Origin: a phage
Sequence record: PZ445437.1
Reading direction: 5' to 3' (one strand)
DNA: 64,000 nt
Shown here piece after piece: positions 46,064 to 48,507 of the stretch. A model generated the notes under the pieces. That model had not been told where the DNA came from, searched no databases, and saw only the letters and a program-made list of their open reading frames with translations. The translations under genes and the position numbers were made by a program. The number at the start of each line of letters is the position of its first letter. Position 1 is the first letter of the stretch.

Positions 46064-46924
46064 TTACACCGCCATTTTTCCTTTAATTGGCAGATGAGAT
46101 ACATAGTTGTTAAGAACAAAATTATGAGGCTTTGCAAATTGACTCAACCAAAATACCTGCGATTCTGTGTCCCATTCATCAAATTCATCTGGAAATTTTA
46201 ATTGTAATTCGCATAAATCCATAGGTTCACGACGTAAAATTTCTTTACATTGTTCTACGTGATTCATATAGATATGAGTATTACCACCAGAAAATATCAA
46301 ATCTCCAGGAATAAGATTACACATTTTAGCTACAATATGAACTAACGTAGCATATGATGCAATATTAAATGGAAGACCGAGGAAAACATCTACCGAACGT
46401 TGATACCACTGCAAATCTAAATAGCCATTACGCACATTAAACTGATAGAACATATGACAAGGCGGTAATGCCATATATTTAAGTTCAGCTGGATTCCACG
46501 CAGAAACAATTTGACGCCTATCATTTGGCAGTTTTTTAATACGATCAACAACTTCTATAATTTGGTCTACACCGCCAAAATCACGCCACTGTTTTCCATA
46601 AATTGGACCAAGTTCACCACTATGGTATCCTAAATCTTTTGCCTGATTTTCGTAATTTTCATCCCAAACTGTTTTGCCTTGGATTAACGAATCGTGTTGA
46701 ATTAATCGTAAATCATTGACATTTGTGCTTCCCGATAAAAACCATATTAGCTCAGCAATGCATGCATTCCAGGCGAGCTTCTTAGTTGTTACTGCAGGAA
46801 AACCTTTGGTTAAATCCCATCGTAATTTAGTACCGAACAAAGCAATTGTTCCTGTGCCCGTTCGGTCATCGGTTTCATAGCCATTTTCAAAAATGTCTTT
46901 AATTAAATCTTGGTATTGTTTCAT
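46064..46924 (-). CDS. td: thymidylate synthase, uninterrupted (no intron)
   Basis: contiguous 286-aa ORF recognised as T4 TS ([31 protein letters not shown]...); catalytic Cys in PPCH motif. Confidence 0.96.
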
Positions 46925-46969
46925 TTAGTACCTTATATAAATTATAATACATTTTATGAAGCTAAATAA

Positions 46970-47317
46970 TCAATACGATTTAGCATCAAATTTTCTCTCA
47001 ATTTCAGGCGTGAAATATAATTCTTTACCGCGTTTGGAAAAGCGACCAATAATATGATAATTATTCTCATCAAACGTGATATTACCAATATCCATAGCTT
47101 TCAACCAAATATCGATATTTCTATCCAGCTTTATATCAAAATTCCAATACGGAGAACTATTACCGAAAATAATGCAAGCGGATTCAGTGAAACAACTGCT
47201 ATAAATCTTGTCTTTAGGAACTACTAATTGATAGACACCTTTAATAAACTGAGGACCCTGCCACTTTGGCTGTTTCTCGTCTTTTTCTAACAGAATAGGG
47301 TAATAATTAAAATTCAT
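46970..47317 (-). CDS. hypothetical 115-aa protein inserted between frd and td
   Basis: ATG-initiated ORF occupying a position where T4 frd and td overlap (recalled). Confidence 0.6.
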   Translation of the reverse strand: MNFNYYPILLEKDEKQPKWQGPQFIKGVYQLVVPKDKIYSSCFTESACIIFGNSSPYWNFDIKLDRNIDIWLKAMDIGNITFDENNYHIIGRFSKRGKELYFTPEIERKFDAKSY

Positions 47318-47336
47318 ATTTCCGCCACGCGTTATT

Positions 47337-48163
<827 letters not shown>

Positions 48164-48174
48164 ATCATCTCCAA

Positions 48175-48507
48175 TTAAAAAGGATCAGGAACGTATCCGC
48201 TAGCTTTAATCATTTTAATTAACGTTAACATTCCTTTGTTAACTGCTCGTGAGATTTCATCAAAAGCTTCAGGATTAAAAAGTTCTAACACGCCCTTCTG
48301 AACTTTTAATTTACAGCCAACAATTTCTTCATCGCCTATAGTAAATTCATTACCACCAATTCCTCCGAAAAACTTAATTACACCAGTTAACTGTCTTCCA
48401 CGAGAATATGGGTCGTGTGATAAATTAATATGAGTCACCCCGGGTACAGTTTTAAATTGGCAGCGAATGTTTACTTGGGAAATTCCAGTTACATGAATAT
48501 CAGACAT
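48175..48507 (-). CDS. hypothetical protein (frd-32 interval)
   Basis: 110-aa ORF, ATG with GAGGA SD. Confidence 0.65.
   Translation of the reverse strand: MSDIHVTGISQVNIRCQFKTVPGVTHINLSHDPYSRGRQLTGVIKFFGGIGGNEFTIGDEEIVGCKLKVQKGVLELFNPEAFDEISRAVNKGMLTLIKMIKASGYVPDPF

Follow-up and report, generated by a model that had tools for sequence, protein, structure and literature searches.

A conserved 115-residue gene between frd and td in T-even phages and the probable origin of the T4 frd/td overlap by deletion

In phage T4, the gene for dihydrofolate reductase (DHFR; frd) runs directly into the gene for thymidylate synthase (td), and the question raised by the phage sequence record PZ445437.1 is why an additional open reading frame (ORF) encoding 115 amino acids should stand between the two. 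In the 64,000-nucleotide stretch of this record (the window), this ORF occupies positions 46970..47317 on the minus strand, and the initial annotation, made from the sequence alone, read it as a lineage-specific insertion into a tightly coupled gene pair. Our analysis points the other way, to a gene that probably belongs to the frd-td slot from early on and that T4 would have lost. The explanation that we favor as a whole, at a probability of roughly 0.55, is that of a real, ancestral accessory gene, removed from T4 by a deletion, driven by the middle promoter Ptd, and encoding a dispensable partner in the thymidylate module. Our confidence in the gene-level and evolutionary parts of this account is high, and in the functional part low.

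The reading frame lies between an upstream frd of 193 aa (47337..47918, minus strand, annotated thus in nearly identical phages) and a downstream td of 286 aa (46064..46924, minus strand, from the ORF list), with minus-strand spacers of 19 nt (47318..47336) and 45 nt (46925..46969) on its two sides; the initial annotation had given the coordinates, translation, and spacer lengths exactly as we find them. Translation begins MNFNYYPILLEKDEKQPKWQGPQFIKGVYQLVVPKDK from the ATG at 47317, which is the earliest possible start 3′ of the upstream in-frame stop, and the 19-nt spacer contains a Shine-Dalgarno-like GGCGGA stretch that ends 4 nt before this ATG. Comparison of alleles shows that GGCGGAAA(A)TATG is kept in both the Tequatrovirus-type and the Mosigvirus-type alleles. 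The product, at 13.7 kDa and with a pI of 7.7, is a soluble, near-neutral protein.

This ORF is a genuine protein-coding gene under strong purifying selection, and not a chance frame, because its ratio of nonsynonymous to synonymous substitution rates (dN/dS) is low, its codon usage scores best in its own frame, and homologues at 26–48% identity occupy the same slot in other genera. In pairwise comparisons, dN/dS is 0.045 against T2, 0.028 against JoYop, 0.065 against JQD51, 0.062 against Mosigvirus Shf125875, and 0.091 against the metagenomic T4-like contig L014, a range (0.03–0.09) that lies below the 0.10–0.25 obtained for frd in the same five pairs. The codon-adaptation index, calculated with nrdA, td, and frd as the reference set, is 0.65 in the frame of the ORF and 0.42–0.58 in the other five frames, compared to about 0.70 for frd, td, and nrdA themselves, and the GC content of 32.5% is ordinary for the window. 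A pseudogene, the outcome that the initial annotation had set against its own view, is excluded by the low dN/dS and the phage-like codon usage. The identification of the gene draws on the ORF list, dN/dS, a PHROG match, an exact GenBank match, and an AlphaFold model, the last three of which are described below.

The T4 sequence (NC_000866) bears out the overlap stated in the initial annotation: frd spans 145109..145690 and td starts at 145112, so that the two genes share 4 nt (ATGA), and T4 has no ORF between them. The flanking genes and the middle-promoter sequence at the 3′ end of frd are the same in both phages, and the T4 junction is present in the window as two halves, being the window sequence minus 416 bp between two copies of the 9-nt direct repeat TAAATGAAA. 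The left copy (47335..47343, minus strand) spans the frd stop codon, and the right copy (46919..46927, minus strand), 416 bp from it, spans the td start codon; the extra DNA, first estimated at about 410 bp, therefore measures 416 bp as an indel against T4. The T4 state is also rare. Whereas the arrangement with the 115-aa gene (allele A) is found in about 355–362 Tequatrovirus records, including T2, T6, RB14, RB32, and RB51, the T4-type direct overlap (allele C) is found in 32, about half of which are T4 isolates or fragments, and 31 of these 32 match its 44-nt junction at 100% identity. Because the 115-aa gene is in the majority in Tequatrovirus and also follows frd in other genera, the T4 overlap is most simply seen as derived, by one recent deletion between the 9-nt repeats, and the gene as probably ancestral to the slot.

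The distribution of homologues gives this reading its breadth. A tblastn search returned 581 phage records with a homologue of the 115-aa protein, 362 at ≥90% identity (338 records lie at 95–99%) and 219 below 60%. The former group consists of Tequatrovirus, including T2, T6, RB6, RB27, RB32, and RB68, plus some Mosigvirus, and the latter of other genera. Homologues lie directly 3′ of frd in at least six other Tevenvirinae genera, among them Kanagawavirus (CIP9), Jiaodavirus, Gelderlandvirus (Melville), Mosigvirus (Shf125875), and Roskildevirus (Cronus, where the homologue is placed after a paralogue), as well as in the contigs L014, L016/L017 (Providencia phage), L018, L019, L022, and L024; the short contig L015 has another upstream context. 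In the annotated cases that we inspected, the homologue is always in the frd-td interval, with a start that usually overlaps the frd stop, and in other genera its start and stop codons overlap frd and the next gene. The 115-aa protein is 44–62% identical in closer relatives (L014, CIP9), where Frd is 49% identical, and 31–36% identical in more distant ones (Jiaodavirus, Cronus, L019), where Frd is 46–49% identical, so that its divergence between genera proceeds at about the rate of Frd, suggesting vertical inheritance. A hidden Markov model (HMM) search of all six-frame ORFs detected no second copy of the gene in the window.

Two variants of the gene and its surroundings may be mentioned here. 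In the Mosigvirus-type allele (JoYop, JQD51, and Shf125875), frd encodes 205 aa with a different C-terminus and runs 11 nt into the 115-aa gene, which only 13 nt separate from td. In addition, a 195-aa NCBI protein (P0016) carries the last ~40 residues of a Jiaodavirus-type member fused to an unrelated N-terminal part of 150 aa, which is probably a gene-calling or assembly artifact, or else a recombinant.

The family to which the 115-aa protein belongs is small, with 43 proteins at E ≤ 1e-3 among 1.84 billion cluster representatives in an exhaustive profile search; two of these (P0034 and P0051), which are long Ig-repeat proteins, look like spurious repeat matches. Across 48 sequences, W19, G91, K95, and G97 are invariant and L9, Q16, G27, Y29, F93, and F102 nearly so, and the conservation at the C-terminus takes the form of a hairpin, G91-x-F93-x-K95-x-G97...F102-x-P104. 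A search with this wider 48-sequence profile found no annotated relatives. The more distant members (117–145 aa) form a second subfamily, distinguished by an insertion of ~20 residues with the motif PTIxxYKxNP after QxxW, and this subfamily is the gene that adjoins the first in CIP9, Melville, Cronus, and L014. Because the two subfamilies match in a profile–profile comparison (hhalign probability 99.7%, E = 2.4e-25) and are encoded by adjoining genes, they are tandem paralogues. The adjacent paralogues (~115–145 aa; CIP9 gp060, Melville gp235, Cronus gp170, and a protein of Providencia phage PSTRCR_127) occupy the same frd-td slot and share the motifs QxxW, HG-x-Y, and G-R-F-x-K-x-G...F with the first subfamily, but differ by the PTIxxYKxNP insertion and have no copy in the window.

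A third state of the junction (allele B) is found in about 135 Tequatrovirus records at ≥90% identity, and holds an unrelated 68-aa gene (MSNKLKVKDVPNAM...) that overlaps both frd and td, with ATGA at each end (for example, at 1761–1967 of L008, phage vB_EcoM_FT). The same gene is the third frd-td gene in Kanagawavirus CIP9 (L004, 3173–3379), and relatives at 40–43% identity occur in unrelated Phapecoctavirus phages. In one record it is mislabeled a "flagellar biosynthesis protein", and in Shigella phage SH7 (L010, 1711–1913) a changed A-run has put it out of frame and it is unannotated; this copy is either decaying or the product of a sequencing error. Taking the three alleles together, the simplest history starts from an ancestral string frd-A(-B-C)-td, with differential loss in its descendants; T4 and a small clade would then have lost the 115-aa gene through the 416-bp deletion between the repeats, fusing the frd stop to the td start, and the three alleles could be exchanged by recombination inside the conserved flanking genes. 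In this respect the gene is like the small ORFs that fill the variable ("hyperplastic") slots of T4-like genomes: these, too, are dispensable, are found in varying numbers between one core gene and the next, and are exchanged through recombination in the conserved genes on either side. The 115-aa gene differs from them in being unusually well conserved and vertically inherited.

The gene is already catalogued and annotated, yet uncharacterized. The protein matches the PHROG 1928 HMM with E = 3.2e-36 (residues 4–111 on profile positions 2–125 of 126), and an exact-sequence look-up shows that it is identical to GenBank QXV84805.1 of phage TadeuszReichstein. It is the same gene that goes by the name RB32ORF229c in the RB14 and RB51 records and that is present in T2, T6, RB32, and several hundred Tequatrovirus records; since PHROG 1928 is a family without assigned function, membership in it says nothing about mechanism. 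Most records label the product a "hypothetical protein", and occasionally it is called a "putative homing endonuclease" (records of the BASEL phages and ValerieMcCarty04) or "dihydrofolate reductase" (DHFR-type labels in JLBYU24, APTC-EC-2A, and JQD51, plus one "reductase" record). In the literature on T-even phages and their transcriptomics, on the frd-td junction, and on screens of accessory genes, our search turned up no study of the PHROG 1928 gene.

We next consider how the gene is likely to be expressed. In T4, the middle promoter Ptd starts transcription at 145142, inside frd and 30 nt upstream of td (PMC2988021, Table 1, Hinton's review), and the middle-promoter consensus consists of a MotA box, (a/t)(a/t)(a/t)TGCTTtA, located 12 ± 1 bp upstream of a −10 element TAtaaT (PMC2988021). 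The window is base-for-base identical to T4 from 47425 to 47340, Ptd included, and by this sequence identity the counterpart of Ptd lies at 47370..47404 (minus strand) in the 3′ end of frd; it was missed in the initial annotation. In our reading of its elements, the MotA-box-like AAATGGTTGA (47404..47395) is followed by N12 and a −10 element TAAAAT (47382..47377), and both the spacing of the box and the mapped T4 position agree with a MotA-dependent middle promoter. The T4 start at 145142 corresponds to a predicted start at 47370 in the window, 53 nt upstream of the ATG of the 115-aa gene. We infer that Ptd is active in this phage, in which case its transcript would have the 115-aa gene as first cistron and td as second, and the gene would also be reached by read-through from frd. 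A scan for terminator-like sites between frd, the 115-aa gene, and td found none.

The initial annotation also noted a TATAAT in the td-proximal spacer and proposed that td may have gained its own promoter. The motif is present, as part of an array of putative promoter-like elements: the 45-nt spacer contains TTGATT-N18-TATTAT (46973..46944, 9 of 12 matches) as well as a MotA-box-like TTTAGCTTCA with TATAAT or TAATTT downstream of it. The counterpart of this stretch is annotated as "promoter" in phage Lutter, and the element is kept in four allele-A Tequatrovirus phages and missing in the Mosigvirus-type allele with its 13-nt spacer. The region has, however, just as many sigma-70-like sites (16) as shuffled sequence leads one to expect (15.6 ± 4.0), and an extra td promoter in the spacer is possible but no more than that. 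The spacer gave nothing in an Rfam scan or on RNA folding, with a fold z-score of −1.8 and 10 of 200 shuffles folding as well.

An AlphaFold2 model of the 115-aa protein built with a 16-sequence alignment is confident, with a predicted local distance difference test (pLDDT) score of 85 and a predicted TM-score (pTM) of 0.80, and has strands at residues 6–12, 27–34, 48–50, 62–64, and 80–82, a helix at 68–76, and a long hairpin (86–96 and 99–104) that bears the GRFxKxG motif. The predicted fold is a compact β-barrel with one helix, weakly OB-like at best, with a correspondingly faint resemblance to OB-fold nucleic-acid-binding domains such as those of SSB, RPA, Teb1, HIN, and the RecO N-terminal domain, a resemblance that would suggest binding to nucleic acid. 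A Foldseek search against the PDB gave no match at E ≤ 1e-3, and the structural matches in BFVD are only to uncharacterized T4-like phage proteins, including the adjacent paralogue Cronus gp170. Scans of the 115-aa protein, its paralogue, and the 68-aa gene against Pfam, NCBIfam, and PADLOC returned only HlyIII at E = 0.17, which is not usable. A match to TagH in a sequence profile search of the PDB (E = 0.0046) covers a partial stretch, and was treated as chance.

These data bear on several other explanations for the gene. That it is a recent insertion, a moron of ~410 bp that brought its own promoter into an ancestral frd/td overlap, is very improbable: the 9-nt direct repeat flanking the extra DNA could be read as a target duplication, and the promoter-like element of the allele-A spacer, missing in the Mosigvirus-type allele, could have arrived with it, but most records of the genus have the gene, and it sits at this position in at least six further genera, where its divergence matches that of frd. 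Moreover, the composition and codon usage match those of the neighbors, and it is the T4-type junction that is rare and nearly invariant, as one recent event predicts. A free-standing homing endonuclease or its remnant, the latter suggested in the initial annotation, would account for a presence/absence polymorphism beside td, a gene known for intron homing, and is what several GenBank records name. There is, however, no match to GIY-YIG, HNH, LAGLIDADG, or PD-(D/E)XK in Pfam at E ≤ 10, nor in NCBIfam, in agreement with the initial observation that no GIY-YIG or HNH motif is recognizable; the protein has a single histidine and neither a GIY nor a YIG motif, no nuclease fold appears among the structural matches of the model, and its 115 aa fall far short of the size of the Seg and Mob proteins. 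Full-length purifying selection and stable vertical inheritance are not remnant-like either, and we regard this origin as extremely improbable. The idea of a second DHFR, or a fragment of one, can be set aside almost entirely, as it comes from the product names of a few records only; one of these (JQD51) has its product names shifted by one gene throughout the frd-td region, and the protein shows no match to DHFR_1 in Pfam and no similarity to DHFR in sequence or fold in searches of the PDB and of structures. Since neither a nuclease nor a reductase finds support, we read the product as a non-catalytic binding module, with a nucleic acid or a protein as partner.

Our preferred reading of function, put forward tentatively and with the odds leaning somewhat against it, is of a dispensable protein that works by binding, as a partner or modulator in the phage's module for thymidylate and deoxynucleotides; its target would be Frd, Td, or nucleic acid at the thymidylate/deoxynucleotide-precursor complex. 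We favor it because of the fixed place beside frd across genera, the translational coupling in most genera, the predicted co-transcription with td, the Frd-like vertical evolution, and the strong constraint. A more specific version, in which the family and its paralogues represent an unrecognized fold and a dedicated partner of DHFR or thymidylate synthase, for instance tethering the enzyme to the deoxynucleotide-synthesizing complex or tuning dTMP output, is quite doubtful. In the main rival reading, which we hold only a little less probable than the preferred one, the gene would instead serve in host interaction (anti-defense, exclusion, or host takeover), as a small early or middle protein that neutralizes a host or competitor protein and is kept or lost according to the hosts met. 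Three alternative alleles at one junction within Tequatrovirus, tandem paralogues and a frd-td slot that holds between zero and four small ORFs depending on the genus, the restriction of so small a family to T4-like phages, and domain scans without an enzymatic signature would all fit such a role. Against it, a dN/dS of 0.03–0.09 together with vertical inheritance at about the rate of Frd is unlike the usual arms-race gene; the literature search found no paper tying the gene to a defense system, and no PADLOC model matched, with the caveat that PADLOC holds defense, and not counter-defense, proteins.

The neighborhood of the gene differs from T4 in other respects. The td gene has no intron here, whereas in T4 it has a group I intron that carries I-TevI and is annotated as two parts on either side of I-TevI; close relatives such as KarlGJung have both the 115-aa gene and the td intron. 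Two more small ORFs lie between frd.1 and frd on the minus strand, one of 81 aa (47918–48163), which overlaps the frd start via ATGA, and one of 110 aa (48175–48507). As the frd.1-frd gap in the T4 annotation is only 71 nt, the segment upstream of frd is longer here, too.

Taking these results together, the often-quoted T4 frd/td overlap would be a derived minority arrangement, which corrects a T4-centered assumption: in most T-even phages, frd-td holds a strongly conserved gene that has escaped all study because T4 does not have it. The name Ptd is itself T4-centric, in that the promoter would serve the 115-aa gene before td in phages that have this gene, and the gene need no longer be labeled a "putative homing endonuclease" or a "dihydrofolate reductase". 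This is an ordinary accessory gene, with no sign of an unusual mechanism or a new kind of system. If the product is indeed a partner in the thymidylate module, T4, the model for all the biochemistry, would be one of the few T-even phages without it. The tight selection on the gene, its lack of a known fold, and its fixed place beside two enzymes of nucleotide metabolism make it a reasonable candidate for a deletion study.
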